NCBI GenBank assembly: GCA_964484335.1
Contig: CAZAGA010000002.1
Coordinates: 1-35,579, forward strand
Direction: 5' to 3'
Length of the DNA stretch: 35,579 nucleotides
From: an uncultured Anaerolineaceae bacterium
GTDB lineage: Bacteria; Chloroflexota; Anaerolineae; Anaerolineales; UBA4823
The notes below the pieces were generated by a model. The model ran no database searches. It saw only the letters and a list, made by a program, of their open reading frames with translations, and had not been told where the DNA came from. Positions 14,699 through 29,846 of this stretch are shown piece after piece (within the stretch, counting starts at the first letter, position 1; every line of letters begins with the position of its first letter). The translations under genes and the position numbers were made by a program.

Positions 14699-17101
14699 TC
14701 AGTCCAGGATTCCAGCCACCAGGCGAGATCCATCGGCGCGTGCAAAATAATTCCGGTAGGAGCGGGTCTCCTCCAACAGGAGAGTCAAGCTAGCTTCAGC
14801 GCCTCCAGCAGAGGAAAGTGGCCGGGGGCTCTTCTGTTCGGTCAGATTCTCACCCTCCAGGTTAGGACTTCCCGGTCGTTTAAATACAATCTGACCAGGT
14901 AGTGGCTCTCTCCAGAGAAGATAACCTGCCTCCATCATCCATTGCAAGCCTTTGCGGACTGTTAATTCACGTTGGGCCAGGCCAACGGCCAGGCGACCCA
15001 GGAGGGTCTGGCCACCTTCTTGTCGAAGGCAATACTTAACCATCCCAGCCAGCCGGTTCAGGAAATAGTTTAAGTCATCAGTTCGCGGCATGATCGAAAA
15101 CAAAAAAATCGTTGATGGCCTGGTTCGCTGAATGACCTCTTCGAGAACCTCTGGTCCCGGAGGTGGAGTCCAGACCGCCAGAGGCACGCCCACAATCAGC
15201 CCGGCTCTCCCGGAGGCAGCAACACCTTTTGAAGCCAACAACTCCAATGCCTCGCCTTCTGCCCACACCTGCACATCACCACGGCTCATCAATTCCAGCA
15301 AGGCGGGCAGAGGGTGTTCAAACTGGCGCAAATCCTCAATCGCAGGGCGATAGACAGGTTCTGCCAGGGGGAGGACCTGCTGCGAAGGACGAAAATCCAA
15401 CCACTCCAATTGAAGCGACCGCTGGCCGCGGAAAGTCACCCCGCGCAGGCTGAAAGCGAGGTCAAAACGTCCTTCTGGGAGAGGCCAGCCAGCTCCTTGC
15501 CACCAGATCAATTTTTGGGGAATCCCAGCCGCGTCTTCAACAAGTACCGAAAGGTGCTCGCCGCCTCGCCCAACTGGAGCTGCGCTGGCAAGTTGTAAGT
15601 CTCGGCAGGCCAGTACCAAGGGTGGATTACCGGCGCCAAACGGCGCCAATCTTTCGATATCAGCTGCCAGGTCAAGGCTCAGCTCGGACATGTCAAGATA
15701 CGCATCGATCGATAGAGTCGGCTCCGGCAAAGCCGGGGCCTGGTCCAAAGTTCGCCATAAACCACGCCGGAAATCGTTGATTCTTTCAGGCAGCAGAGAA
15801 AATCCAGCCGCCATGGCATGCCCGCCATGATCTTCGAGAAGAGCCGAGTGGGTCTTTAGCAGGTTGGCCAGGTGAAGGCCCTGCACTGAGCGAGCCGAGC
15901 CACGCGCTAAACTCCCTGGAGGACTGGAGATCAAGAATACCGGCTTATGGGTGTATTCCACCAGGCGGCTGGCGACAATACCTAAAATACCGCCCGGCCA
16001 TTCCGGATGGGCAAGCACCACGGCCGGCCCAGCCGCAAGTTCCGGATTGCGCTCAAGCTGGGAAAGCGCACCCTGGAAAACCTGGCTGGTTAGCAGTTTT
16101 CGCGATTCGTTCATCCCCTCAATTTGCGCTGCCAACAGGCGCGCTTTCCCCAAGTCAGTTGTAGTTAGCAGTTCCACCGCAGGGTTGGCGTCTCCGAGTC
16201 GTCCGAGCGCATTTAAGCGTGGTGCAAGCTCAAAGCCGATATGCTCCTCATTCACCAGCCCCGATTCCAGCTCGGCCAACTCCAAGATGGCCAGCAGGCC
16301 AGCACGGCGGGTCTGGCGCAGGGCAACCAGTCCACGCTGGAGCAAGTAGCGAGTATCGAGCTGCTGTGGTGCGACATCGGCGACTATTCCAAGGGCAACC
16401 AGGTCCAAAAATTGGTGCGATTCCAATTGGCGACTGAGACGCTCATACAACGCCTGGACGAGCTTATAGGCTACACCTACACCGGGTAAGCCAAAAAGGC
16501 GATGCCCATCTGGCAGCAAGCGAGGATTCAGGATCACGAAAGGCGTTGGGAGTTCATCGGGAAGTTCATGGTGGTCGGTGACGATCGTTTCCACCCCACG
16601 CTCCCGGGCATATTCGATAGCCTGGTGGGCGGAGACGCCGCAATCACAGGTTAACAGCAGGCTCACCGACCCCCATCCGGGCTGTCCGCCCAGCGCTGCA
16701 CCGGTCTTCCCTTCCAAAACTTGAGCCAGGAAGGGAATCTTGATGCCATGCGATTCAAGTTCCCGGACTGGAATATGATAAACCACCCGCGCACCGAGAT
16801 CCTGCAGGGCTGAGACCAGCAACGAAGTCGCCGTCTGGCCATCGACATCAAAATCTCCCCACACACAGATCGTTTCAGCAGATTGAATCGCTTTCACCAA
16901 CCGGTCAACTGCCCGGTCCATGCCAGGAAATTCATAGGGTGAAGCGGGTTGATACTGATCGGGATCCAGGAAAGCGCTGGCGCTGGTGCTGTCCTTGAAG
17001 CCACGCCGGATCAACATTTCGGCCAGCATCCGACGTCCGCCTACCAATTGCTCGATCGCCTCAGGAATACTGACTGGTTCAGGTTCGATCCAGGTGGTCA
17101 T
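14699..17101 (-). CDS. recJ: Single-stranded-DNA-specific 5'-3' exonuclease RecJ (long form, 800 aa)
   Basis: DHH-family motifs VWGDFDVDGQT, LLTCDCG and IVTDHH, plus the DHHA1 motif GGHAMAAG. ATG 17101 lies 2 nt after the stop of the upstream nuclease gene. Confidence 0.9.
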   Translation of the reverse strand: MTTWIEPEPVSIPEAIEQLVGGRRMLAEMLIRRGFKDSTSASAFLDPDQYQPASPYEFPGMDRAVDRLVKAIQSAETICVWGDFDVDGQTATSLLVSALQDLGARVVYHIPVRELESHGIKIPFLAQVLEGKTGAALGGQPGWGSVSLLLTCDCGVSAHQAIEYARERGVETIVTDHHELPDELPTPFVILNPRLLPDGHRLFGLPGVGVAYKLVQALYERLSRQLESHQFLDLVALGIVADVAPQQLDTRYLLQRGLVALRQTRRAGLLAILELAELESGLVNEEHIGFELAPRLNALGRLGDANPAVELLTTTDLGKARLLAAQIEGMNESRKLLTSQVFQGALSQLERNPELAAGPAVVLAHPEWPGGILGIVASRLVEYTHKPVFLISSPPGSLARGSARSVQGLHLANLLKTHSALLEDHGGHAMAAGFSLLPERINDFRRGLWRTLDQAPALPEPTLSIDAYLDMSELSLDLAADIERLAPFGAGNPPLVLACRDLQLASAAPVGRGGEHLSVLVEDAAGIPQKLIWWQGAGWPLPEGRFDLAFSLRGVTFRGQRSLQLEWLDFRPSQQVLPLAEPVYRPAIEDLRQFEHPLPALLELMSRGDVQVWAEGEALELLASKGVAASGRAGLIVGVPLAVWTPPPGPEVLEEVIQRTRPSTIFLFSIMPRTDDLNYFLNRLAGMVKYCLRQEGGQTLLGRLAVGLAQRELTVRKGLQWMMEAGYLLWREPLPGQIVFKRPGSPNLEGENLTEQKSPRPLSSAGGAEASLTLLLEETRSYRNYFARADGSRLVAGILD

Positions 17102-17103
17102 CT

Positions 17104-17973
17104 CTAAAACACGATTTCCCCAACCTGATCAAAATCGAAACCGATCTCTCCAGGTGTCTCGTTCTCTTCCCAGTTTTCGACGGACCCTAAATCGCCGGCA
17201 GCCGTGCCTCGGTCACAGTAGGAGCGATAAACACAGAATCGGCAGCGCTCGGTCTGCTCAGTTGGCTTGAAGTCAGCTTGCTCCAGTTTGGCGATCTCTT
17301 CGATCAGCCCAGACAGATAGCGTTCATCCGCCTGGAATTGTTCAGTGCTGTATGGGAATACTTCGGGCTGGGCCGGGTAATCCGCGAACCAGTAAATCAT
17401 TTTTAATTGATCTGGGGTGATCGAGAGCGAGTCATTCCAACCAGAGCCGGATCGCGCCACCAGGTAGGGATAGACGCGAGTCTGCAGCCGGGCAGCCAAC
17501 CAGGGTCGCGACAGACGTTTGCGGGCAGTTTTCCAATCGTAAATCAGAACTTCTCCAACGGAACGCGCCAGGATCAGGTCGCACTTTGCTAATAAGCGGG
17601 CGCCAGCCAGAGGCTGAGAGAGGGTTATCTCGGGAAATAGCCGGCTTGGCGCTTCTCGCAGAATCTCCAGCGTTCCCGATTGGCGTGCGCTCTGAAATTG
17701 ATTCCACCAGCGTTGGAGATCAGGCTCATGGACATGGCTGGACAAAAGATCATCCGGAATTCCCAGCAGCGAGCGGTGAACCATCTGATGAAAGCGAGCG
17801 CCTTGCTGCATCCAAAGCTCATTTTCTAAAACGGGTTCGCTCTGGATTGCTGGCCAGGCTAGTTTCTGGACATGGCGCAGGTAATAGCGGCGCGGGCAAT
17901 CGACATAATCCTGTAAACTCGCCGCAGAATGTATCAGGACCGGTTTCTTGGTCAGGCCAGCCGGTTCGTTCAC
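17104..17973 (-). CDS. Stand-alone PD-(D/E)XK nuclease with four-Cys (Fe-S) signature, Cas4/AddB-nuclease-like
   Basis: 289 aa. N-terminal Cys in DCPRRYYLRH, nuclease core CDLIL...VLIYDWKT (D...DxK), QTRVYPYLV (QxxxY) and C-terminal CRFCVYRSYC (CxxCx5C). The GTG start overlaps the helicase stop (GTGA, 17970-17973). Confidence 0.8.
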   Translation of the reverse strand: MNEPAGLTKKPVLIHSAASLQDYVDCPRRYYLRHVQKLAWPAIQSEPVLENELWMQQGARFHQMVHRSLLGIPDDLLSSHVHEPDLQRWWNQFQSARQSGTLEILREAPSRLFPEITLSQPLAGARLLAKCDLILARSVGEVLIYDWKTARKRLSRPWLAARLQTRVYPYLVARSGSGWNDSLSITPDQLKMIYWFADYPAQPEVFPYSTEQFQADERYLSGLIEEIAKLEQADFKPTEQTERCRFCVYRSYCDRGTAAGDLGSVENWEENETPGEIGFDFDQVGEIVF

Positions 17974-20237
17974 GTTTCCCTTTCCTTTAGCAACTTTTGC
18001 CAGTAATTTTCCAAAGCGATAAATGCCTGGGCGGGCTGCATATTGCCTTGCTTGCCACTATTCCAGGTCAAGACCAATTCTTTCTTTGCGCGGGTAAGAC
18101 CGACATACAATAAGCGCAGGCGTTCGCGTACATAATTCAAGCGCGCGTCAAGAGTAGCAGCACCTTCCTCATACCACTCATAGGCATCCTGGCTCAAAGC
18201 AGCCTTCAACTGGGCTAATGTTTCTTCCGCCAAGTTTAACTGGTTTCGCAAAAACCATTTTTCAGGCAGATATCGATCACCCGGCAGACCAGCCGGAAAA
18301 TCATAATTATTGACCGACATCAAGTACACCCGATCCCATTCGAGTCCTTTGGCTTTATGAAGTGTGCCCAGGACCACCTTCCCACGATAGTGATCTGGAT
18401 CGAACGCCCGGTCATACTGACTGAAGTTCAGCATCCGGCGTTCGTTGCGCACCATCTCGCCCAATTCTTTCGCCAGGTCGGGTAAGCGCAGGGAAGGATC
18501 GATCTGGCAAGTTTGCTGCAGCAAGCCAGCCAGTTTATAGGTGATTGCTAATTCGGTCGGATCGGTCAATAGCTCCTGGGCGAGGATTAAGACCAGTTGG
18601 TCAATTGGCAGGATCACAGCGGCTTGCCAGCGGCGGACCGCCTGGCGGAAAGACTCCAGATCGTCCAAAACCACTGGAGCGAGACCGGCAGCAGCCTGTT
18701 CCGCCAACCAATCCAATTCCAACCCAGGGTACAGGTAATCTTCCACCCGTTTGAGTTTATGAATTAACTCCGCCCGCGCTTCGTATTCTTTGCGCGCCTC
18801 ATCATTCACCTGTTCAGCTTTATGCCAGACCCGGTAGGCCTGGGCTAGCTTGTTTGCCGACCCCGGATCTGCCAGGGCGCTTAAAATTGCGGTTAACTGC
18901 CCAACAGAGAGGCGTGTAGCGCTCGAACTACGCAGTAGGCTGTCCTCAAAGTCGATCCTGCGAGCGCGCAGCTCGTCTGCCAGGGCGCTGCCGCGATGAT
19001 TGGTCGGCGACAGGACAGCGACTGTGGTTTGGGTGTGCTCAGGCAAGTAGCGCGCCAAGGAGTCAGCGATGAGTTGGATCTCTTTCTCGGGCGTCAGTCG
19101 CCTGGAGTACAGAAAGACCTGATCCGGCTGGTCGGGTGGATTGGCCTGGGGATCGCCCGGCAAAGTCGGCTTGATCAGGGGCGGCGAACGGAGGGCATCG
19201 CGTACTTCTGTCACCAGGTGGTCTTCTTGGGTCCAACGCACCAGTTCATTAGCCAGGTTGATAATGCTCAGGGTTGAGCGACCTGACTCGGGCAGGGACT
19301 GCGAATTAACCCCCGGGCTGTGGATGAAATCAATCAGGAACTGCGGGTTTGCAGTGGTAAAGGTCTCGTAAATCGCCTGGTTGGGATCGCCAACCCGGAC
19401 CCAATTCCCTTGTGAGCCAGCCAGGCGGCGCAAGATCTCTTCCTGCAACCGGCTGCTATCCTGGGCCTCATCTTCAAGGATGTAAGGCCAGCGATCCTGC
19501 AAACGGGCGAGCAGATCCGGGTTGGTTTCCAAAGCCAGGAGAGCCAGGCGCATCAGGTCATCGAAATCTACCGCTCCACGATAATTCAAAGCGCGCTGAT
19601 ACTCGATGTACATCTCCAGGCCCATCTCTGCCAGGGGCAACGCGACAGGCAGCCGGTCCAGGCGTTGGCGAAGCTGCTCAGGGGTCTGGCCAAGATCTTT
19701 CGAATAACGGATGAAACCTACGGCACACTCGCGCACCACTTCGGGGATCTTTTCCCGATAAAGGGAAGGCAGACTGTTTTCATCCAGGCTTTCTTTGAGG
19801 TAGGAATCCAGGCCCGCAGGATGGCTTTTCAACCAGCTCCGAACCACCTCATCCAAGATGGCATTGGTTTCTCGCTCGTCAGCAATGGAGAAATTCTCGG
19901 CCAGCCCAACCAACGAAGGGCGCTCACGAACGATGTCATGCGACAAGCCGTGCAGAGTTCGAACGCGATAACCCAGGTTAGGCAACAATTCATACGACTC
20001 AACGAATTGACCGACCCGCTGGTAGAAATTATCAACCGCCGAATTGACCAGCGTGACCACCAAAACTTCCTGATCTTCTCGCAAGACCCCGCTTCGCAAG
20101 ATTTCGGCTGCCAGAAGGGAAAGCGTCCAGGTTTTCCCGCTTCCTGGCACGGCGGCAATCCCCATCCTTCCGCCTTGGTAGCGCAAGATCCGTTTTTGGG
20201 ACGGTCGTAGCTGAACTTCAGGCCTTTTTGACTTCAT
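17970..20237 (-). CDS. UvrD/Rep-type SF1 DNA helicase without a nuclease domain (AddA-like motor)
   Basis: 755 aa with a complete SF1 motif set: I AVPGSGKT, II ILEDEAQD, III VGDPNQAIY, V LHKAKGLEWD, VI YVGLTRAKKEL. The protein ends about 45 aa after motif VI. The ATG overlaps the upstream stop (ATGA, 20234-20237). Confidence 0.85.
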   Translation of the reverse strand: MKSKRPEVQLRPSQKRILRYQGGRMGIAAVPGSGKTWTLSLLAAEILRSGVLREDQEVLVVTLVNSAVDNFYQRVGQFVESYELLPNLGYRVRTLHGLSHDIVRERPSLVGLAENFSIADERETNAILDEVVRSWLKSHPAGLDSYLKESLDENSLPSLYREKIPEVVRECAVGFIRYSKDLGQTPEQLRQRLDRLPVALPLAEMGLEMYIEYQRALNYRGAVDFDDLMRLALLALETNPDLLARLQDRWPYILEDEAQDSSRLQEEILRRLAGSQGNWVRVGDPNQAIYETFTTANPQFLIDFIHSPGVNSQSLPESGRSTLSIINLANELVRWTQEDHLVTEVRDALRSPPLIKPTLPGDPQANPPDQPDQVFLYSRRLTPEKEIQLIADSLARYLPEHTQTTVAVLSPTNHRGSALADELRARRIDFEDSLLRSSSATRLSVGQLTAILSALADPGSANKLAQAYRVWHKAEQVNDEARKEYEARAELIHKLKRVEDYLYPGLELDWLAEQAAAGLAPVVLDDLESFRQAVRRWQAAVILPIDQLVLILAQELLTDPTELAITYKLAGLLQQTCQIDPSLRLPDLAKELGEMVRNERRMLNFSQYDRAFDPDHYRGKVVLGTLHKAKGLEWDRVYLMSVNNYDFPAGLPGDRYLPEKWFLRNQLNLAEETLAQLKAALSQDAYEWYEEGAATLDARLNYVRERLRLLYVGLTRAKKELVLTWNSGKQGNMQPAQAFIALENYWQKLLKERET

Positions 20238-22375
20238 CCTGAACCTGCCGCTAATAATAAGCGTTGCAGGGCCTGCAGGAGCGGCCCACTCGATTCATAA
20301 CCCTGTTCGCCGACCTTGCTCAAGCCCAGGTAGATGCGTTCCCGGCAGCGATGCAGCAAGCCAAGCGCCAGAGTGCTCAATACTTCCTGGCCAACCTCGA
20401 GCTCATCGTACTCAGTCCAGGGACGGCCGCGTGACCAGCGCCGGCTTAAGACATAAGGATGGGTCAAGGGTTGGTTCAATCGTTCTGACCAGCCTGAGCT
20501 GCCCGCATCCAACCAGAATTGGACACTGACCGGGTGGTTGGTCATCAGAAAGGTGAATGCCGGGGCAATCAGAACGGCATCATCCGGTTGCTCGGTCCAA
20601 CTGCGTACATACTGGGCTGCAATGACACCCTGGGCAACCATCTGCAGGTACTCCCGGCCAAGCGGGATGCCTTCCTCGGCCAGGGTATCCCCGGCTACCC
20701 AACGAAATTTCTGGACCGACTCGATCAGGTTGGCAGTTACTTCAGCTGCCACAAGATCGTTGTGAAAGCCGTATCCAGGCTGAGACAGGATCTCGCCGAA
20801 CATGCGGCTGAGGAAATGATCAAACTCCCCCGGCGGCTCGCGCCGGGTGGCCAACCACTGGCGCAGTGCTTCATATCGTTCACCCACCCGGTAAGTGATC
20901 CGATTTTGGATTTCGCTTTTAATCTGGTCAAAAGATGTCAGGACAGGCAACCCATTGCGAGAGCGAAAAACAATCTCTGCCAGAAGCTGCGCCCGCACCA
21001 GGTCTAAACTTTCGATCGCCTGCATCAGCGCATAAGCCACGTCAGTCTTATTGATGGAGATTTGCCACTCCGGATAGGCCAAACCCGAAAGGGTCAGCAA
21101 GCAACGCGTGGCCGGTTCTTCGCGTAAGGCGCGCGAGGGGCGGTGTGAACGGACCGGCACCCCCCTAGCCTCCAGGCGTTTTAGCAACGAAAATCGCAAT
21201 GAATCGGAAAGATAAGGCGCCAAAACTACGATTTCCGATGGCCGGTAACCCTCTTGATGCACCAAACCGGCAACCTGGTCTGTTACCCAGTCTAACATTT
21301 CGGGGTAATAGACATGTTGCTGGTAGGCTAAAGCCTGTCGGAGTTTAGGCTTAACCAACAACCGGGGGCTTTTTCCGCCTGGCTCCACTCGGGGATCTTT
21401 TTTCTGGAGTACCGCCTCCAGACCTGCTGCTAAGGCCTGGACTGGCTCGCTCATCACCAAGCCGGAATCGAAAACCAACCGTTCCTGGCATTGTCGAGCA
21501 ATTTCCATTGTGGTTTGCGGATCAGCGCCTAGAAAGCGACGAAAACCACCCCGCCAATCGTAAATTAATAAGGCAGACTCAAATTTTGGTAGCCATTCCG
21601 ATAAGATGTCCAGGGTGAAGGGGGTGTCTTCCTCGAGGTTATCGAAAATCAGATGCCGGTAGGATTGTGCCAGGTAGGAACGGCAGAGCTCAACCGGCCA
21701 TAGTTGGGATCGAAAAAGCTCAACCTGCAAGGAATAATCAAGCAGGTTATGATCCAGGCAAAAGCGGCGAAAAAGATTGGCGCATTCCTGGACATCATCA
21801 TACACGCTGAGTTGTCCAGGTTCACCCATCCAGGCCTCTTTTAAGCGCGGGCCAATCTCGTCGACCGGGAAACCAACCAGGGCAGCCTTGTTCAGGTTGT
21901 CCAGGACCTGGCTAAATAAGCGGTTGCGATCAATTTTGACGGAGTCGAAAAATCCTTCCTTAAGCAAAGGCTCGACCAGGTGAGCCATATAATACTGGGC
22001 AGTTTCAAGATTAAGAAAGATTGGCGGGAGGTCCGGTTGCCTGAATCCGGCGCCAGCGGAGACAATTGGCCAGAACAAATCGATCATCCGCTGCGCCAAG
22101 CCGCCCAGGGTAAGGCTAGATACGACACCACCCCCCACTACCCCAGGGTCTTCCAAAGCCTGAAGATAAGGCGCGGCCAGGGTCCGTTGGGGAGTCAGGA
22201 GCAAAATCGAGCTAGCAGGGACGCCCTGCGCCATTAAGTGCAGCAGGCGGTGAACTCCAGCAGTCGTCTTCCCAGCCCCAGCTGGCCCTTCAAGGAAGAT
22301 CTTCGACTGCAATGGTTGGCGGACCAGGCTAGATTGCACTGGCTTCAAATGATGAAAGGCTAATTCTGCGAACAT
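20234..22375 (-). CDS. UvrD-like protein with intact Walker A but degenerate helicase motifs (AddB-like inactive motor, no nuclease domain)
   Basis: 713 aa. It has Walker A EGPAGAGKTT and Ia-like LLLTPQRTLA. The motif II position reads LIFDNLEEDTP, the motif III position IYDWRGGFRRFLGADP, and the motif VI position IYLGLSKVGEQG (no Arg). Confidence 0.6.
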   Translation of the reverse strand: MFAELAFHHLKPVQSSLVRQPLQSKIFLEGPAGAGKTTAGVHRLLHLMAQGVPASSILLLTPQRTLAAPYLQALEDPGVVGGGVVSSLTLGGLAQRMIDLFWPIVSAGAGFRQPDLPPIFLNLETAQYYMAHLVEPLLKEGFFDSVKIDRNRLFSQVLDNLNKAALVGFPVDEIGPRLKEAWMGEPGQLSVYDDVQECANLFRRFCLDHNLLDYSLQVELFRSQLWPVELCRSYLAQSYRHLIFDNLEEDTPFTLDILSEWLPKFESALLIYDWRGGFRRFLGADPQTTMEIARQCQERLVFDSGLVMSEPVQALAAGLEAVLQKKDPRVEPGGKSPRLLVKPKLRQALAYQQHVYYPEMLDWVTDQVAGLVHQEGYRPSEIVVLAPYLSDSLRFSLLKRLEARGVPVRSHRPSRALREEPATRCLLTLSGLAYPEWQISINKTDVAYALMQAIESLDLVRAQLLAEIVFRSRNGLPVLTSFDQIKSEIQNRITYRVGERYEALRQWLATRREPPGEFDHFLSRMFGEILSQPGYGFHNDLVAAEVTANLIESVQKFRWVAGDTLAEEGIPLGREYLQMVAQGVIAAQYVRSWTEQPDDAVLIAPAFTFLMTNHPVSVQFWLDAGSSGWSERLNQPLTHPYVLSRRWSRGRPWTEYDELEVGQEVLSTLALGLLHRCRERIYLGLSKVGEQGYESSGPLLQALQRLLLAAGSG

Positions 22376-23474: not shown

Positions 23475-24935
23475 TCAGTCGGTTCCGACGGTTTCTACCA
23501 TTTGAATAATCCGGCCCAGCTCCTGATCCTGATTGCCATCAATACCTTGGGGATGGTATTCCTTCAAGATCTGCTGCGCCTTGGCGCGCGCCCAATCGCG
23601 TGCACCGTCACATTTCTCTTCCCAGACATTGTACGGGCGACGATCAATCAAGGTGGGGGTCCAGCGCTGGCGCATGTATTGGCGAGTATGGCGCTGAGAC
23701 AGGTAGCTGCCGGTTTGCCCAACCGCCTTAATTACGTCTAGAGCCAAGTCCTGCGGAGTAACCTCGATTCCCTTGAACATCGACTCCAGCATGCTCCAGA
23801 TCTCACAATCCATCAGGAGCTGCTCATAGGATAGGATGCGAGAGCCATGCAATAAGCCGGCGCCTAAGAGCATATCGGACATGGTCAGGACTGCCATGTA
23901 AGAGGAGAAGCTGCTATCCACCCCGGCTTGCCAATCGGGTTCTTTAGCGCCGGTGGCATAGGCGCCCATCGAAAGCGGGACGTGATAGAAATCAGCCAGG
24001 AGATTGGAGGCCGCCCCAAACAGGTAATCTTCAGGACCACCCCCGGTATACGCCCCAGTGCGTAAATCCGTCATCGTCTGGGCAGCCGCGTAATAGACGG
24101 GGCAACCGGGGGCATGCATCTGCATCAACGCCAGGGCGGAGATCACTTCAGCATTGCCAACGACCAGTGTTCCAGCCAGGGTAATCGGCGCATTCGAACC
24201 AGCCGAGGCCATGGTCATATAACCGACAGGTAGGCCAGCTTCTGCGGCTACCAAGCCGGCCTCCAGGCTACCGCCATCATGGCCTAAGGGGCTGTAGGTG
24301 CACTGCATGATTGACAGGATCGGCCGCTTGCGTAAAGCTTCTCGACCGCCAACCAGGCCAGCTGCCATTTCCACCGCAGCATGCATCTCGCGTTCCGTCA
24401 CGATCGACTCAGTCTGGAGGTGTTTCTTGCTGACCCGCCAGACCGCCTGGAGCTCGTGTAAACTCCGGCTCTGGGGTGGACAATCTTGAGCGGAAATTGG
24501 CACCCAATGGAAAGCAATCGCTTCCAGGAAATCGGCCACGCGCGAGACATCCGTTAAATCTTGCTTGGTCGTCCGCCTGCGCTCGGCTGTGAAAGCATCC
24601 AGGATTTCCACACCGCAGCCATCGGTTCCCAAAAAGCTGTGATTGCCATCCATCGGCAGGTCTAGTTCCGCATCGAGGGCGGCCAGGTCATACACCGGGG
24701 GAGCTTTTGCCAGGTATTCTTCGACGACCTGGCCTGGTATCCGGGCGACCTGGGCCTGGCGATCTACAACTGCCCCATGAGCTTCCAGGATGTCCAGCGC
24801 TTTATTGGACGGAAAACGCACACCAACACTCTCAATCACTTCCAAGGTTGCGGTGTGGATCTGCTCGACTTCAGCCGGGGTAAGAATGTTCAGGCTTAGT
24901 TTAGGGTTTCTGATCCCTCTGATCTTTTGAGTCAT
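23475..24935 (-). CDS. MttB-superfamily (trimethylamine methyltransferase-like) methyltransferase, uninterrupted (non-pyrrolysine) paralogue 2
   Basis: 486 aa. N-terminal ILTPAEVEQIHTATLEVIESVGVRF. C-terminal LSYEQLLMDCEIW and SYLSQRHTRQYMRQ parallel LSYEKLVIDAEII and DYLALPHTRKWFRKE in the other paralogue. There is no in-frame stop. Confidence 0.8.
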   Translation of the reverse strand: MTQKIRGIRNPKLSLNILTPAEVEQIHTATLEVIESVGVRFPSNKALDILEAHGAVVDRQAQVARIPGQVVEEYLAKAPPVYDLAALDAELDLPMDGNHSFLGTDGCGVEILDAFTAERRRTTKQDLTDVSRVADFLEAIAFHWVPISAQDCPPQSRSLHELQAVWRVSKKHLQTESIVTEREMHAAVEMAAGLVGGREALRKRPILSIMQCTYSPLGHDGGSLEAGLVAAEAGLPVGYMTMASAGSNAPITLAGTLVVGNAEVISALALMQMHAPGCPVYYAAAQTMTDLRTGAYTGGGPEDYLFGAASNLLADFYHVPLSMGAYATGAKEPDWQAGVDSSFSSYMAVLTMSDMLLGAGLLHGSRILSYEQLLMDCEIWSMLESMFKGIEVTPQDLALDVIKAVGQTGSYLSQRHTRQYMRQRWTPTLIDRRPYNVWEEKCDGARDWARAKAQQILKEYHPQGIDGNQDQELGRIIQMVETVGTD

Positions 24936-24969
24936 TGCGATTTACCCTTTGGACAGAAATGTCCTGACA

Positions 24970-25632
24970 TCAATTCTTAACACCAGCCAAGCGCTTGGCC
25001 AGAGTCACTGCGCCCATTGCGTCTTCGGCATAACCATCGGCGCCGATTTCTTCCGCCCAACTGCGAGTTACTGGCGCACCGCCAACCATCACCTTAACTT
25101 GATCGCGCAACCCGGCGTTGACCAATTGTTTGATCACCTCGCGCTGCATGGTCATGGTAGTGGTCAGCAAAGCTGATAAACCAAGCAGATTGGCGTTGGT
25201 TTCTTTGATTTTGTCGATGAAGGTTGCAATGGGCACATCGACACCCAGGTCATGAACCTTGAAGCCATTGGCCGAGAGCATGGTCGCGACCAGCGATTTT
25301 CCAATTTCATGGATATCGCCTTTCACGGTCCCGATGACAACCACGCCCGGGGTTTCGATGGCCTGCTGGCGGGCTCTCAACTCGGGCTCAAGCAGCTCCA
25401 TGGCCCGCTTCATGCCATCCGCAGCAATAATCAGATCTGGCAGGAAGTAGTCGCCCTTGGCGAAGAAATCGCCGACGATGTTCATGCCAGGCATCAGTCC
25501 TTCGCGAATAATCACCAGCGGTTCCAGGCCTGCTTCTAAGGCCTGTTTGGCCAGGGCTTCGGTCGCGTCCGGGTCACCATCCACCAGGCTTTGAGAAATT
25601 TGCTCCAGTAGTTCTTTAGCATCGCCACTCAT
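24970..25632 (-). CDS. Cobalamin-binding corrinoid protein (MtbC/MttC/MtgC-like)
   Basis: 220 aa. N-terminal helical cap (SLVDGDPDATEALAKQALEAGLEP) and a B12-binding Rossmann domain with GDIHEIG (DxHxxG), LSALLTTT (SxL) and VMVGGAP (GG). AAGGAG lies upstream. Confidence 0.85.
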   Translation of the reverse strand: MSGDAKELLEQISQSLVDGDPDATEALAKQALEAGLEPLVIIREGLMPGMNIVGDFFAKGDYFLPDLIIAADGMKRAMELLEPELRARQQAIETPGVVVIGTVKGDIHEIGKSLVATMLSANGFKVHDLGVDVPIATFIDKIKETNANLLGLSALLTTTMTMQREVIKQLVNAGLRDQVKVMVGGAPVTRSWAEEIGADGYAEDAMGAVTLAKRLAGVKN

Positions 25633-25672
25633 TGCACAGTTCTCCTTCTTTGAAATAGTTTAGGGAATCCAA

Positions 25673-27136
25673 TCAAGCGACAAATTCCGGCAGTTGGTCC
25701 ATCCCAAACCGCCTGGCTGCCGAGAGGGTAATCTTTTTCAATTCCGAACGCAACTCGGGAGAGAGTGAATTCGGCTGGTAGCCTGCCAGGAGCTTTTCCA
25801 CCCGTTCAGCGGCGCGATCCGTGACCGATTTCGACCCTTTTTGCTGCCAGGCGTCATAGGAGCCGCGGTCGATCACCTCTGATGGCAGGTAAAGCTCCTT
25901 GCGGAACCATTTGCGGGTGTGCGGCAGGGCCAGGTAATCGCTGCGGTGGCCCATCGATTGCATCACATCCAGGGCAATCGGATGCTCGCGAATCTCGATC
26001 CCTGTAGCCATACGCTTGCTCAACCCAATAATCTCGGCGTCAATCACCAATTTTTCGTAGCTGAGGCAGGTTTCAAAATCCAGCATCCCGGCGCCGGAGA
26101 TCATATTCGCTCCAATTAAGGCAGCGGTCATTGCACCGCCCATCGACTCCAAGCCGCACTGGCTATCCACCAGTTTCGCGTCGCTCATTCCCATATAGAC
26201 ATGGGTTGGTAAGTCGAGTGCCTTGCCAACCTGGACATATCCAGCGTCGATCAACCAGGTCTCGGCCGCGCCCATAGGCGTCGTCCCTTCCCGCATATCA
26301 AAGGCCGCCGGGGATCCCCCCCAAACGATCGGGGCGCCAGCCTGGGCAAGCTGGTGGATGACGACCCCGCTCAGGCATTCGGCGGTATGCTGGACTACCG
26401 CCGCGGAGAGCGTCACCGGGGAGGTTGCGCCAGAGAGCGGCATCGAAACCAGCTCAGCTGGGATGCCGGTTCGGGCACAGTCGATTAAATTCTGACAGGT
26501 CAGGTCGCTCCATAACAGCGGCGGCGAGGGGCAGACATCGAAAACCGCCAACGGCTGGGCGGCTAAGGCTTCAGAGCTGCCGCGCACCGCCATGAGCAAC
26601 TCACGCATGGTCCACCAGGTATCCTTGCGGAATGCGCCGGTCACAATCGGCTTGCGCATGAAATTCAGGGCCAGAAATAGCCGGTACAGGTCGCCGATCT
26701 CCTCGGCTACATCGCTACATACCATTGAAGTACTCTGGGCATCAATTTGGGGCAGGATTTCAACCAGCTTCACCCAACGAATATAGTCCTCCGTCAGAGG
26801 AGGCCGTTGCAGGCCAGTATTGACATCCAGGATCGAGATCCCGGCCGATCCCGGGTCGAATGCGATCGCATCGCCGCCATAGTGCACAACTGGTTGGTTG
26901 TCGAGGTCATAAAGATCAAAAGCGGCCGGGGCGGTCATCAGCGCCTGGCGGACCAGGTCTTCCGGAATGCAAGCGACCTGGCGATCGAAATCGACCTGTG
27001 CACCGGCCTGAGCCAGCAGATCAAGCGCCTCCTGGTTATGAACGCGCACACCCGGGTTCACCAATAGTTCGATCCCTTCCTGGATAATCTGCTTTACCGT
27101 GCTTTCATCAAATACTCTTAAGGTTGGGCGAAACAT
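25673..27136 (-). CDS. MttB-superfamily methyltransferase, uninterrupted (non-pyrrolysine) paralogue 1
   Basis: About 487 aa from ATG 27136 (MFRPTLRVFDESTVKQIIQEGIELL), preceded by AGGAGA. The track start at 27166 would overlap the upstream gene. Shared MttB landmarks are listed under paralogue 2. Confidence 0.8.
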   Translation of the reverse strand: MFRPTLRVFDESTVKQIIQEGIELLVNPGVRVHNQEALDLLAQAGAQVDFDRQVACIPEDLVRQALMTAPAAFDLYDLDNQPVVHYGGDAIAFDPGSAGISILDVNTGLQRPPLTEDYIRWVKLVEILPQIDAQSTSMVCSDVAEEIGDLYRLFLALNFMRKPIVTGAFRKDTWWTMRELLMAVRGSSEALAAQPLAVFDVCPSPPLLWSDLTCQNLIDCARTGIPAELVSMPLSGATSPVTLSAAVVQHTAECLSGVVIHQLAQAGAPIVWGGSPAAFDMREGTTPMGAAETWLIDAGYVQVGKALDLPTHVYMGMSDAKLVDSQCGLESMGGAMTAALIGANMISGAGMLDFETCLSYEKLVIDAEIIGLSKRMATGIEIREHPIALDVMQSMGHRSDYLALPHTRKWFRKELYLPSEVIDRGSYDAWQQKGSKSVTDRAAERVEKLLAGYQPNSLSPELRSELKKITLSAARRFGMDQLPEFVA

Positions 27137-27146
27137 GTCTTCTCCT

Positions 27147-29846
27147 TTAGACTGGGTTTTGACCAAATCGCTGAAGCGAATCTTCGGTCTGGCGAAAATG
27201 ATATTCGATTTCTAATTCGCTAAAGATTTCCAGAGCTGCATTCAGATGCTCCCGGCCCTGTTGGAGCTCGCCGTGCTCCGCCAGAGCTGAACCGTATTCC
27301 CTCCTGCACCTGGCATACAGATAAAGATAATGCTTATCAGCCAGTAAATCAATAGCTCGCTTAAATTGGACCTGAGCGGCTTGCCAATCCCCAGCCTGGT
27401 TAAGAACAACCGCTCTGGCTAAGACAGTATAGGCTAACTCATACTGGTAATTCCTGTTCACAGCATACTGACAGGCTTTTTCAACAGCATCGATTGCCTG
27501 AGCGTGCAACTCAAGTCCAGAGAAGGCCAGCGCCAGGTCAGCATACTGGTAGCCAATGTTCCATTCTGCTTTGATCCTTTCCGCCAGCTCAATCGAGACC
27601 TGAAGGTGCTTGACTGCTTTCTGATACTCTTTTTTCATCAAGCAGATCGTGCCAAGACTCTGTTCTGCGAAGGCCTGGTCATCCAGGTTGCCATTCCGGC
27701 GAGCCAGTTCGATCGCTTTATGGGTGGTCTGTAAACCGCGATCGAAATCGCCAATCCGGATTAAATCGTCCACCATGTTCAAATAAAAAGTAGTACAGCG
27801 AGGGTTATGCTTTGCTTCCGCCAAGTCGATTGCTTTTGCGAACATAGGCAAGGAGTGGTTGAAGAAACCCCGGTTGCCGTAAGAAATTCCCATATTGTTG
27901 TAGATATCGAGAATCAGCTTGGTTAAGTCTTCGTGCTGCTGTTCGGTTTCTGCCACCTGACCAAGGATTTGGGCCCGAGTGAGGAGGTATGAAAGGTTCG
28001 GGATGACGGTCTCACAATCACCCTGCCGCTCACAAATATAGGCCAACAACTGCTCGGCATGAATTTCTCGATAGGATTTCTCGAAACTATTCGGCGCACC
28101 GGATAGGACATCCAAAGCCTGGTGATAGTATTTCGAAATCTGGTCAATTTCCAAGCCTTCTTCATCCGCAGTGTCGCCTAGTTTGATATTAATCTTTGAT
28201 AGAAAAAGCGGATCCAGATTTAGCTCCTCCGCCAAATCGAGGACAACATAATAAGGATCAAAGGCTTTTTTATATTCGCCCTGCTCAAAATAGGCATCAC
28301 CCAGGATCTCGTGGAAAACGATCTCGCGTTCTTTGAGGCCACGCTGCCCCAGGCGAGTAGCGACCTGTTCTTGGGCCAATACTTCCAATCCTGCAATACA
28401 CCAACGCCCTGCCTCTGCCCAATTGGCCTGGCTGAGCTCATGGCGGGCAGCTTTTAACGCGTTATCCATCGCATCCTGGTAGCGGCAGGCTTCGCGCGAG
28501 TGCTTGGCAATCAAGCCAGCTTTGGCTGGAATCGCCTGGTAAATATCTTTGAAGAATTCGGCCAGGCGAGCGTGCAGTAAACGGCGATAGCCCTTACTCA
28601 ATTGCTGATTGTAAATAAATTCCTGGAAGAAGGGGTGATGAAATTTATAATAATCCATCCAGTACCCGGTGGAAAGCTCAACAGGCCCTAATTCATCAAT
28701 AAACCGATAGCTCTTTTCGAGCTGGTTCAGGATGAGGTAAATTTGTTCGATATCTTTGCCACTAATACTGGCCAGGGTCTGAGCGGAAAATTCCTGACCA
28801 TCCACGGATGCATAGAGCAACATTTTCTGGAGCTCCTCGGGAAGGATGTGCAGGCGGGCTTCGACAACTTCCGAGATCGAGTGAAGGAATTGGAGCTCAA
28901 GCTGGTCATCTTTCCCAGAAAGATCCCAGGCCAATAGACCGCTGGCCGATATTTTCGGCAGAATTTTGCCATCATTCTCCCAGAGATTGAAGAGCTCACT
29001 GATAAAGAGCGGCTGCCCGCCAGTAAAGCCCTGAATTTTCTCAATCAAAGCGTCCGATAATTGAAGCCCAGGAAAACGCTCCTGGACATATTCCCTGACT
29101 TGAATGCCTTGCTCGAGGGTGATCTGCTGGCCAAACTGGTAACGTTCAATACCGGAGACTATTTCCTGGAAAACCTCAGCTTTGGCGTTGGTGACCTCCG
29201 CCGAGACTGTCCGGTAGGTCGTCAGGATCAGGATCGGCGCATCTTCAAGATTTCGGAGAAGGTGATAGATCAATCGGGCGGAAGAAATATCCGCCCAGTG
29301 GAGGTCATCGATAAAGATGACTACCACCCTTTTCGCTGCGATTTTTCGCAGAAGGTTAGAGAATTGCTCAAAGACGCTTGTCTGGGAAAAAATGTTGGGC
29401 CCGAGCATCTGGCCACCCGCTTCAATCGTTTTTACGGTTGCATCGGCGATCCCCAAGGTGACGATATCCAACCAGGCAGGCGCAACTTGTTTTATGAAGC
29501 CCAGCCAATTAGAAGAGATGATCCGAAGCTTTAGGCTTTGCTCGCCAAGCGATTTAGTAACCTGAGCGAAAGGATATAACCCATTCAGTTCTTCTTCAAG
29601 CGAACAAACCGCCCGGCCGATAATCGGCTTTTCCCGTTCCTTAATTTCCGGATTGGTTTCCTTATCCAGAATATCCACCAGAAACCTTTCCACCAGGTAG
29701 GTTTTGCCGGTGCCAAAATCTCCGTTAACCAGGGCAATGCGCGGCTTCTTATGCCGGATGACTTCCTGGTATAGACTCCGGAGCTGACTTAATTCTCGAT
29801 CCCTACCGATTAAGACGCCTTTCGAGCGGATGTTTTCCTGGAACAT
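27147..29846 (-). CDS. STAND-type P-loop ATPase (AAA_16-like) fused to a long TPR array, with no recognisable effector or DNA-binding domain
   Basis: 899 aa. LIGRDRELSQLRSLY...IALVNGDFGTGKTYLVERF (Walker A) and VVVIFIDDLHWAD (Walker B) fit the AAA_16 pattern. The C-terminal 450 aa or so are TPR-like repeats (AYFEQGEYKKAF, ICLMKKEYQKAVKHLQ and others). The TAA stop lies 10 nt before the MttB start. Confidence 0.7.
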   Translation of the reverse strand: MFQENIRSKGVLIGRDRELSQLRSLYQEVIRHKKPRIALVNGDFGTGKTYLVERFLVDILDKETNPEIKEREKPIIGRAVCSLEEELNGLYPFAQVTKSLGEQSLKLRIISSNWLGFIKQVAPAWLDIVTLGIADATVKTIEAGGQMLGPNIFSQTSVFEQFSNLLRKIAAKRVVVIFIDDLHWADISSARLIYHLLRNLEDAPILILTTYRTVSAEVTNAKAEVFQEIVSGIERYQFGQQITLEQGIQVREYVQERFPGLQLSDALIEKIQGFTGGQPLFISELFNLWENDGKILPKISASGLLAWDLSGKDDQLELQFLHSISEVVEARLHILPEELQKMLLYASVDGQEFSAQTLASISGKDIEQIYLILNQLEKSYRFIDELGPVELSTGYWMDYYKFHHPFFQEFIYNQQLSKGYRRLLHARLAEFFKDIYQAIPAKAGLIAKHSREACRYQDAMDNALKAARHELSQANWAEAGRWCIAGLEVLAQEQVATRLGQRGLKEREIVFHEILGDAYFEQGEYKKAFDPYYVVLDLAEELNLDPLFLSKINIKLGDTADEEGLEIDQISKYYHQALDVLSGAPNSFEKSYREIHAEQLLAYICERQGDCETVIPNLSYLLTRAQILGQVAETEQQHEDLTKLILDIYNNMGISYGNRGFFNHSLPMFAKAIDLAEAKHNPRCTTFYLNMVDDLIRIGDFDRGLQTTHKAIELARRNGNLDDQAFAEQSLGTICLMKKEYQKAVKHLQVSIELAERIKAEWNIGYQYADLALAFSGLELHAQAIDAVEKACQYAVNRNYQYELAYTVLARAVVLNQAGDWQAAQVQFKRAIDLLADKHYLYLYARCRREYGSALAEHGELQQGREHLNAALEIFSELEIEYHFRQTEDSLQRFGQNPV

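Follow-up and report, generated by a model that had tools for sequence, protein, structure and literature searches.

Three classes of helicase-nuclease machine are known to resect bacterial DNA ends, namely RecBCD, AddAB and AdnAB; 88% of genomes have one of these, and ~12% of complete bacterial genomes have none (PMC6452273). In AddAB, the AddB subunit has kept none of its helicase motifs but motif I and the Asp that coordinates Mg (D208), ATP binding at this site being tied to stabilisation of the Chi complex and not to unwinding, while its nuclease domain contacts the duplex end together with an Fe-S loop, the cluster being essential for DNA binding (PMC3321194). AdnAB has been found only in Actinobacteria (PMC6452273); its lead motor AdnB pumps the 3' strand through AdnA, which trails behind and whose nuclease domain carries an Fe-S cluster and, at the Y-junction, receives the displaced 5' strand (PMC13000450). 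In the present study we examined a stretch of 35,579 nucleotides from an uncultured Anaerolineaceae bacterium (GCA_964484335.1, contig CAZAGA010000002.1, positions 1 to 35,579), hereafter the window, which contains a four-gene cluster encoding a degenerate helicase-fold protein (P1), a helicase (P2), a nuclease (P3) and RecJ (P4). The conserved unit of this cluster is the P1-P2-P3 trio, which probably represents an Anaerolineae-specific, three-subunit, single-nuclease analogue of AddAB and AdnAB that resects DNA ends with RecJ.

The four genes are read in the order P1 to P4 (Table 1). An initial annotation based on the letters of the window (the sequence-only reading) had described four minus-strand genes joined by overlaps of ATGA and GTGA and by a 2-nt spacer, and the open reading frames (ORFs) lie exactly so. 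Comparison with family models also returned the domains that it had anticipated for the first three proteins, with a UvrD match below threshold for P1, UvrD and UvrD_C for P2 and PDDEXK_1 for P3.

P2 is a complete UvrD-type helicase that ends after motif VI and has no nuclease domain, as had been proposed. It matches PF00580 (UvrD-helicase, 6.7e-42) and PF13361 (UvrD_C, 2.6e-21), all motifs are present (I, residues 30-36; II, DEAQD, 254-261; III, GDPNQAIY, 283-296; IV, GRS, 318-322; V, 625-635; VI, 711-721), and the 755-residue chain stops 34 residues past motif VI with no PDDEXK match. The best PDB sequence matches are Rep, UvrD and PcrA, with AddA at 7.5e-9. Since its scores fall far below every equivalog cutoff, including those for rep, pcrA, uvrD, recB (87 bits, cutoff 696) and addA (76 bits, addA_Gpos cutoff 707.65), P2 appears from its sequence to be a distinct UvrD-family lineage and not the housekeeping UvrD or PcrA. 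Motif III, at window positions 19350-19391, reads GDPNQAIYETFTTA; the aromatic 'pawl' positions are retained, and the Arg that contacts single-stranded DNA is Thr family-wide. The same motif in RecB and AddA reads ...Y.FRGA. [quoted passage not shown]

P1 is less readily recognised. Its sole Pfam match is the sub-threshold one to the UvrD N-terminal domain, over the Walker A region, and no NCBIfam family matched at E<=0.1. The AlphaFold2 (AF2) model (predicted local distance difference test score, pLDDT, 86.4; predicted TM-score, pTM, 0.84) has a four-subdomain UvrD-like fold that spans all 713 residues and leaves no nuclease domain. Foldseek searches with this model returned UvrD at 8.5e-20 and AddB (3u44_B) at 7.6e-18, with the best coverage on AdnB at query TM-scores (TMq) of 0.67-0.69 (9np6_B, 0.69). 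A profile-profile alignment of P1 with the P2 family (hhalign, E 2.7e-5 over 541 columns) indicates that P1 and P2 are distant paralogues.

The motif state of P1 agrees in part with the earlier claim of a protein that keeps Walker A and has degenerate motifs II, III and VI. Walker A is kept, with G35 invariant and G30 and K36 conserved in >=90% even in a diverse set of 36 sequences (27-51% identity). In motif II the Walker-B Mg-binding Asp (D245) is retained and the catalytic Glu is replaced by Asn (N246); N246, E248 and E249 are invariant or >=90% conserved across the alignments, and the motif reads DDLEE, DNFEE or ENAEE in distant members and never DE. The motif III Gln is Gly or Ala. Degeneracy extends further than had been claimed, to motif IV, of which the Arg is absent, and to motif V. 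Motif VI, on the other hand, is ambiguous, as R676 and R678 are conserved. P1 is thus predicted to be deficient in ATP hydrolysis. Mean column identity is nonetheless 64% and Walker A is invariant, although the catalytic residues are lost, a sequence pattern that fits a constrained non-enzymatic partner. A family-specific C-terminal block (QFWLD..GW.ER..QPLTHPYVLSR.W) has no counterpart among the UvrD motifs; Q619, W621 and W629, together with W653, are invariant even at 27-51% identity, and this region may form a DNA-binding or DNA-scanning surface or a subunit-docking one.

P3 had been described as a stand-alone PD-(D/E)XK nuclease with a four-Cys signature, and both parts of that description hold. 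It matches PF12705 (PDDEXK_1) at 1.7e-25 and has a Cas4-like C-terminus; C26, C247 and C253 do not vary among 43 family sequences, in >=90% of which C244 is conserved too. Homologues number at least 1225, and the 120 listed are all 274-304 residues long. The AF2 model (pLDDT 82.4, with residues 266-289 below 50) gave Foldseek matches to ACE1 (2.4e-8), the AdnA nuclease domain (3.6e-8, TMq 0.57), Exo5 and Cas4, and more weakly to AddB (6e-5), which makes the AdnA nuclease domain the best match among helicase-nuclease structures. ACE1, the Argonaute-associated Cas4 enzyme (9IAB/9IAC), is also the nearest PDB sequence match, at E ~1e-3 only; we rejected it as the same system, the relationship being one of superfamily. 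P3 likewise falls below the cutoffs of the CRISPR Cas4 models TIGR00372 (40 bits, cutoff 65) and PF01930 (16.9, cutoff 22.7), and its neighbours are P2 and RecJ and not cas genes, so that it does not qualify as a CRISPR-associated Cas4. The chain ends in a short acidic/aromatic peptide, for which the family consensus in alignment A3 is DFDQIAEIEF-COOH, with D280, F281 and Q283 >=90% conserved and E286 invariant. This tail is conserved with or without an adjacent RecJ and is a probable docking peptide that would tether the detached domain. In style it resembles the C-terminal tail of SSB. The SSB tail recruits RecJ and other repair proteins.

P4 is RecJ, as had been stated, scoring 462 bits against the TIGR00644 (recJ) cutoff of 396.9. 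It comprises PF01368, PF02272 and PF17768, contains the DHH and GGH motifs, and matches the RecJ structures 8y30, 5f54 and 2zxo. The C-terminal extension was considered as a module-specific adaptor and rejected, being not distinctive: its conservation is no more than moderate, and the PDB already contains RecJ chains of 666-757 residues.

Table 1 Features of the P1-P2-P3-recJ cluster, in window coordinates
Feature	Coordinates	Strand	Description
P1	20234..22375	-	713 aa; putatively inactivated UvrD-like superfamily 1 (SF1) helicase-fold protein, counterpart of the AddB/AdnA motor-like domain
P2	17970..20237	-	755 aa; complete UvrD/Rep/PcrA-type SF1A motor without nuclease domain
P3	17104..17973	-	289 aa, GTG start; stand-alone RecB/Cas4-type PD-(D/E)XK nuclease, counterpart of the AddB/AdnA nuclease domain
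P4, RecJ	14699..17101	-	800 aa; 5'-3' single-stranded DNA exonuclease with DHH, DHHA1 and OB domains and a C-terminal extension of ~230 aa
ATGA overlap, P1 stop/P2 start	20234..20237	-	reads ggATGAag
GTGA overlap, P2 stop/P3 start	17970..17973	-	reads acGTGAac
2-nt spacer, P3 stop TAG/RecJ ATG	17102..17103	-	reads TAG-ag-ATG
P1 Walker A/motif I, GPAGAGKT, residues 30-37	22265..22288	-	G30, G33, G35 and K36 invariant in 57 orthologues
P1 degenerate motif II, F-D245-N246-L-E248-E249-D250-T	21623..21646	-	placed by hidden Markov model (HMM) alignment to UvrD and by hhalign to P2 L-E-D-E-A-Q-D
P1 C-terminal block, residues 619-647	20435..20521	-	family-specific, highly conserved
P3 C244-x2-C247-x5-C253	17215..17244	-	with C26 (17896-17898), four predicted Fe-S ligands ('iron staple')
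P3 catalytic motifs D132, D146-W-K148, Q164-x3-Y168 (RecB-family motif)	17470..17586	-	invariant in alignment A3
P3 C-terminal tail, DFDQVGEIVF-COOH, residues 280-289	17107..17136	-	acidic/aromatic, after a disordered acidic linker

Tight spacing is a common feature of the whole window and is not peculiar to the cluster. A nearly gap-free co-directional run of minus-strand genes extends upstream of P1 to ~31088, with 19 nt between the end of the AzlD gene and the P1 start, and a promoter and terminator scan of the window did not exceed the shuffled background, with 10 promoter-like sites against 10.3 expected, which does not inform operon boundaries. Because tight spacing continues beyond the four genes, the case for their linkage rests on conservation across species and not on the overlaps in the window.

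A scan of one genome per GTDB species, seeded with the closer alignment of P1 (A1; the diverse alignment, A2, was too divergent), found a P1 relative in at least 565 species genomes. The best 80 of these are all Chloroflexota, mostly Anaerolineae, and every named relative is likewise from this phylum. P1 forms a family of its own, with 386 clusters at E<=1e-30 in an exhaustive search of 1.84 billion cluster representatives and full-length members of ~700 residues; P1 and P3 homologues come from metagenome-assembled genomes (MAGs) of Anaerolineales, Anaerolineae and Chloroflexota, and even P1 members at just 27-34% identity carry Anaerolineaceae, Caldilineaceae or Chloroflexi labels. The distribution looks vertical within one class.

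Synteny was assessed by tblastn of the four window proteins against 80 distinct loci from distinct GTDB species, with counts taken over assessable loci. P2 follows P1 in 71 of 74 loci and P3 follows P2 in 60 of 64, so that the conservation of order across relatives, which had been put forward as a check, is found in ~95% of cases. Strand and gene order are always alike in loci with cluster members, and the order survives down to 27-36% P1 identity, where the flanks hold entirely different genes. RecJ follows P3 in 45 of 54 loci (83%). It is absent for more than 6 kb downstream of the trio in 9/80 loci, including a MAG assigned to Anaerolinea thermophila (L023). Among the most distant loci, L083 (34% P1 identity) and L085 (27%) lack RecJ but have the trio, its genes overlapping or almost abutting, and L084 (31%) has all four genes abutting. 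The description of the trio as hard-wired to RecJ was thus too strong: as nine loci keep the trio without RecJ, the conserved unit is P1-P2-P3, with RecJ a frequent but optional neighbour. Translational coupling, also claimed, is not universal. Where ORFs could be delimited, most junctions overlap or are <=30 nt (47/71 for P1/P2, 42/59 for P2/P3 and 26/45 for P3/RecJ), and extra genes are inserted between cluster members in about a quarter of loci. These insertions were considered as a fifth component and rejected, being heterogeneous passengers of which the largest recurring family occurs in four loci; by eye they resemble CAT-like acetyltransferases, GNAT proteins, peptidases and membrane proteins. 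In L013, L068, L074 and L080 a gene of ~210 residues occupies the P1-P2 gap, and its HHALVDG motif suggests a chloramphenicol-acetyltransferase-like (CAT-like) protein, apparently a passenger.

A few loci deserve separate mention. The RecJ match, and sometimes that of P2 or P3, is spread across two or more reading frames in L002/L010 (~15200-17530), L004, L020, L047 and L069, and in L002 RecJ was called only as a 327-residue RecJ_OB fragment; such splits could be assembly frameshift errors or real pseudogenisation. A Por_Secre_tail gene adjoining L084 hinted at a host outside the Chloroflexota, which we rejected, all named relatives of its P1 being Chloroflexi or Anaerolineae. In L086 (10001-12837, Caldilineaceae) P1 is not coupled to P2 and P3, and the gene after it, which overlaps it by 4 nt, encodes a TPMT-like S-adenosylmethionine (SAM) methyltransferase. 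Both proteins are contained in P0418 (949 residues), which we examined as a candidate P1-nuclease fusion and rejected, the extra part being the methyltransferase that elsewhere is a separate 204-residue protein; P0418 may be a merged gene call. A second candidate, P0372 (1419 residues), was rejected as its extra region holds no significant domain. Among the 150 best cluster representatives, no P1 relative carries a recognisable nuclease domain.

The wider genomic setting of these genes is also relevant. A survey of 5563 complete genomes (Bernheim et al. 2019, Table S1, PMC6452273) scored Anaerolinea thermophila UNI-1, Anaerolineaceae oral taxon 439 and Caldilinea aerophila as AddAB=0, AdnAB=0, RecBCD=0 and RecJ=1. 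Since these three cultured relatives, in the class or close to it, score zero for all three systems, the Anaerolineae fall within the unexplained 12%. The first two were also scored RecQ=0 and RecOR=1, and C. aerophila is the one Anaerolineae-related genome scored RecQ-positive (PMC6452273). No RecD- or RecC-like gene was found in the cluster or its immediate flanks. In bacteria without RecBCD, AddAB or AdnAB, double-strand break processing has been studied in Deinococcus, where it takes the RecJ and RecFOR route.

From the domains and motif states, the similarity in fold, and the conservation, synteny and context described above, we infer that P1, P2 and P3 form a complex that acts in recombinational repair. 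In the mechanism that we propose, P2 would be the single ATP-driven 3'-5' motor, translocating on the 3'-ended strand as an AddA or AdnB without its nuclease. P1 would be a nucleotide-binding, hydrolysis-impaired subunit that trails the motor as a conduit or scanner for the 3' strand, in the manner of N-terminal AddB or AdnA. P3, which its conserved C-terminal tail probably anchors, would be stationed at the fork, binding the DNA end and cleaving the displaced 5' strand, which RecJ, where co-encoded (in most lineages it is presumably co-transcribed with the trio), would digest processively. As this scheme has no nuclease for the 3' strand, the product would always be a 3' single-stranded tail, without need for Chi attenuation. 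We suggest more tentatively, and with appreciable doubt, that the cluster defines a fourth class of end resection after RecBCD, AddAB and AdnAB, with one motor, one detachable, tail-held Fe-S nuclease and RecJ as a physical fourth subunit, generating 3' tails constitutively without Chi control and serving as the main presynaptic pathway of a class that has none of the known ones.

Several observations weigh against the trio being an analogue of AddAB and AdnAB. The AddB, AdnA and RecC sequence models do not match P1, and plain UvrD gives the best Foldseek E-values, so that the label 'AddB-like' rests on motif pattern and context. In sequence, Rep, PcrA and UvrD are nearer to P2 than AddA or RecB are. 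The invariant E248-E249 pair of P1 could provide an alternative catalytic base, in which case P1 may still have ATPase activity. Broken clusters account for ~10% of loci; P1 is alone in L063, L070, L077 and L086, and no P3 is nearby in L038, L049, L051 and L076. The absence of canonical systems was scored in three cultured genomes, among which the source genome of the window does not figure. Chloroflexus and Dehalococcoides also score zero for AddAB, AdnAB and RecBCD (PMC6452273), and no P1 relative from these groups was present among the hits inspected. Absence of a canonical system does not by itself call for a replacement and is suggestive, not decisive.

Two other explanations accept the gene assignments and differ over what the proteins do together. 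The trio could be a substitute for RecQ, with P1-P2 serving mainly as RecJ's helicase partner during gap repair of the RecFOR type or during fork processing, and P3 as an accessory that trims flaps or 5' ends. The 83% adjacency of RecJ is in keeping with such a role, as are the Rep/PcrA/UvrD affinity of P2, the scores of A. thermophila and oral taxon 439 (RecQS=0, RecJ=1, RecOR=1), and the Caldilineaceae, in which P1 is uncoupled from P2/P3 and C. aerophila has RecQS=1. A RecQ-like role needs neither a conserved dead motor nor an 'iron staple' nuclease, however, a pair that among known helicase-nuclease complexes is characteristic of the end-engaging AddB and AdnA, and the trio persists without an adjacent RecJ; we therefore consider this explanation unlikely, noting that it overlaps with an AddAB-like function and differs only in substrate. 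Alternatively, the genes might be co-located and functionally independent, in which case operon inertia would hold together a degenerate P2 paralogue (P1), a housekeeping paralogue of UvrD/PcrA (P2) and a Cas4-like nuclease acting on its own (P3), without complex formation. The distant paralogy of P1 and P2 would suit this, as would the passengers tolerated in ~25% of loci, the broken clusters and the general tightness of spacing in the window. Operon inertia would hardly account for order and strand being kept down to 27-36% P1 identity despite complete turnover of the flanks, for the strong conservation of a P1 that has lost its catalytic residues, or for a conserved docking-type end peptide on P3 after a disordered linker, and on this evidence independence is improbable.

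The remaining two had been raised as alternatives in the sequence-only reading, and both fare poorly. An anti-phage helicase-nuclease module of the Gabija, Hachiman or UvrD-Cas4 kind is brought to mind by PADLOC, in which P2 matches many GajB (UvrD-type) models (best 2.5e-41) and P3 matches Cas4 and Cas4-like models, and by the link of UvrD-Cas4 fusions to defence contexts (PMC5704561). These matches are generic to the superfamilies, and no GajA, HamA or other partner was detected among the four proteins. A sporadic, island-borne cluster would be expected to look different: base composition is flat across the window with no island signal, the flanks are metabolic or housekeeping genes both here and in relatives (ribosomal proteins, RF-1, GlmS, RecG and RlmN), the distribution is broad and apparently vertical in one class (at least 565 species), and the trio is linked to the core repair gene recJ. 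Together these features argue against a defence island, and we regard a defence role as very improbable. That P2 and P3 are a single helicase-nuclease gene split by a sequencing frameshift at the GTGA junction has nothing in its favour beyond the 4-nt overlap. The two are separate ORFs in all 59 loci delimitable for both (P2 <=802 and P3 <=333 residues), which come from many independent assemblies and include 14 with a gap of >150 nt, and the P3 homologues noted above are stand-alone proteins; the probability of a split gene is accordingly negligible.

The other genes of the window give the cluster a metabolic neighbourhood, the flanks comprising MttB and corrinoid methyltransferase genes, AzlCD, DegV, an M20 peptidase and a LiaF-TM-like protein. 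Directly upstream, at 23475-27166 on the minus strand, two MttB-family methyltransferase genes (486 and 497 residues) lie either side of a gene for a B12-binding corrinoid protein, in what looks like a methylamine or quaternary-amine methyltransferase set, with AzlC/AzlD next. The same co-directional run includes an 899-residue STAND-type AAA_16 ATPase with TPR repeats (27147-29846, minus strand), which is not conserved beside the cluster in relatives.

As a concrete and testable candidate for break processing in the Anaerolineae, a large, environmentally abundant and poorly cultured group of filamentous bacteria, the cluster offers a natural dissection of the AddAB/AdnAB design, with the Fe-S nuclease already separate and the 3'-strand nuclease missing. 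It should be useful for asking what the dead motor contributes, what the iron-staple domain does, and whether Chi-type regulation is needed where the 3' strand stays uncut. Its genetic association with RecJ further suggests that helicase-nuclease and RecJ-dependent resection can combine in one pathway. A literature search on AddAB, RecJ, Chloroflexi, Anaerolinea, and helicase-nuclease with Cas4-like proteins found no prior description of the cluster.

Comparison with described systems places the trio near several of them. An unfused UvrD gene next to a pfam12705 Cas4-like gene has been predicted to form an operon, with a possible function in repair, in 'mostly Clostridiales' (Hudaiberdiev et al. 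2017, PMC5704561). As in that operon, a UvrD-family helicase here adjoins a stand-alone PF12705 nuclease in a non-defence context; compared by description only, the Clostridiales arrangement differs in having two genes, in belonging to another phylum, and in that no dead-motor partner or RecJ is mentioned. With the RecQ-RecJ pair of the RecFOR pathway the cluster shares the principle of a helicase feeding 5'-ended single strands to RecJ, here encoded in the same cluster, whereas the helicase of the trio is SF1 and not an SF2 RecQ, and comes with a dead paralogue and an Fe-S nuclease. To our knowledge, recJ is not encoded with its helicase in model organisms. The cluster does not qualify as Gabija, as the GajB matches of P2 are generic, none of the four proteins is a GajA, and the flanks are AzlD and the LiaF-TM-like protein. 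GajA is an OLD/TOPRIM ATPase-nuclease.

Among the three end-resection machines, RecBCD resembles the trio in that RecB, a live SF1A motor, works with RecC, whose helicase fold is inactivated. The trio differs in having no RecD-type SF1B motor; RecB moreover carries a nuclease of its own that lacks an Fe-S cluster, a dead nuclease fold is fused to RecC, P2 scores far under the recB cutoff, and there is no RecC/RecD-like gene at the locus. AdnAB (PDB 6PPR, 9NP6) supplies the best TM-scores for P1, on AdnB, and the best helicase-nuclease match for P3, in the AdnA nuclease domain. Both of its subunits, in contrast to P1 and P2, are motor-nuclease fusions, and the phosphohydrolase motif set of AdnA is apparently intact, while that of P1 is degenerate.

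AddAB (RexAB; B. subtilis, PDB 3U44, 4CEJ) shares with the trio the combination of a live SF1A UvrD-like motor, a helicase-like partner that is inactivated yet retains Walker A and the Mg-binding Asp, and a RecB-type nuclease with a 4-Cys Fe-S cluster. P2 corresponds to the AddA-type SF1A motor with its full set of ATPase motifs, and P1 to the helicase region of AddB, with the same pattern of motif loss as reported for that subunit (PMC3321194). AddA's RecB-family nuclease at the C-terminus is, however, missing from P2 and all its orthologues, the Fe-S nuclease that is fused in AddB is here the separate 289-residue P3, and neither P2 nor P1 belongs to the NCBIfam addA or addB equivalogs. AddAB, a stable heterodimer with Chi-regulated nuclease activity, thus has two polypeptides and two nucleases, the trio three polypeptides and one nuclease, usually with recJ linked. 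In B. subtilis addB is encoded before addA, as P1 is before P2. The proposal that a dead motor, a live motor and a detached Fe-S nuclease match none of RecBCD, AddAB or AdnAB has therefore stood: the cluster lacks the fusions of AddAB and AdnAB and has no RecC/RecD-like gene, yet shares the same working logic. P1 and P3 can be read together as a split AddB or AdnA, and P2 as the AddA or AdnB motor minus its nuclease.

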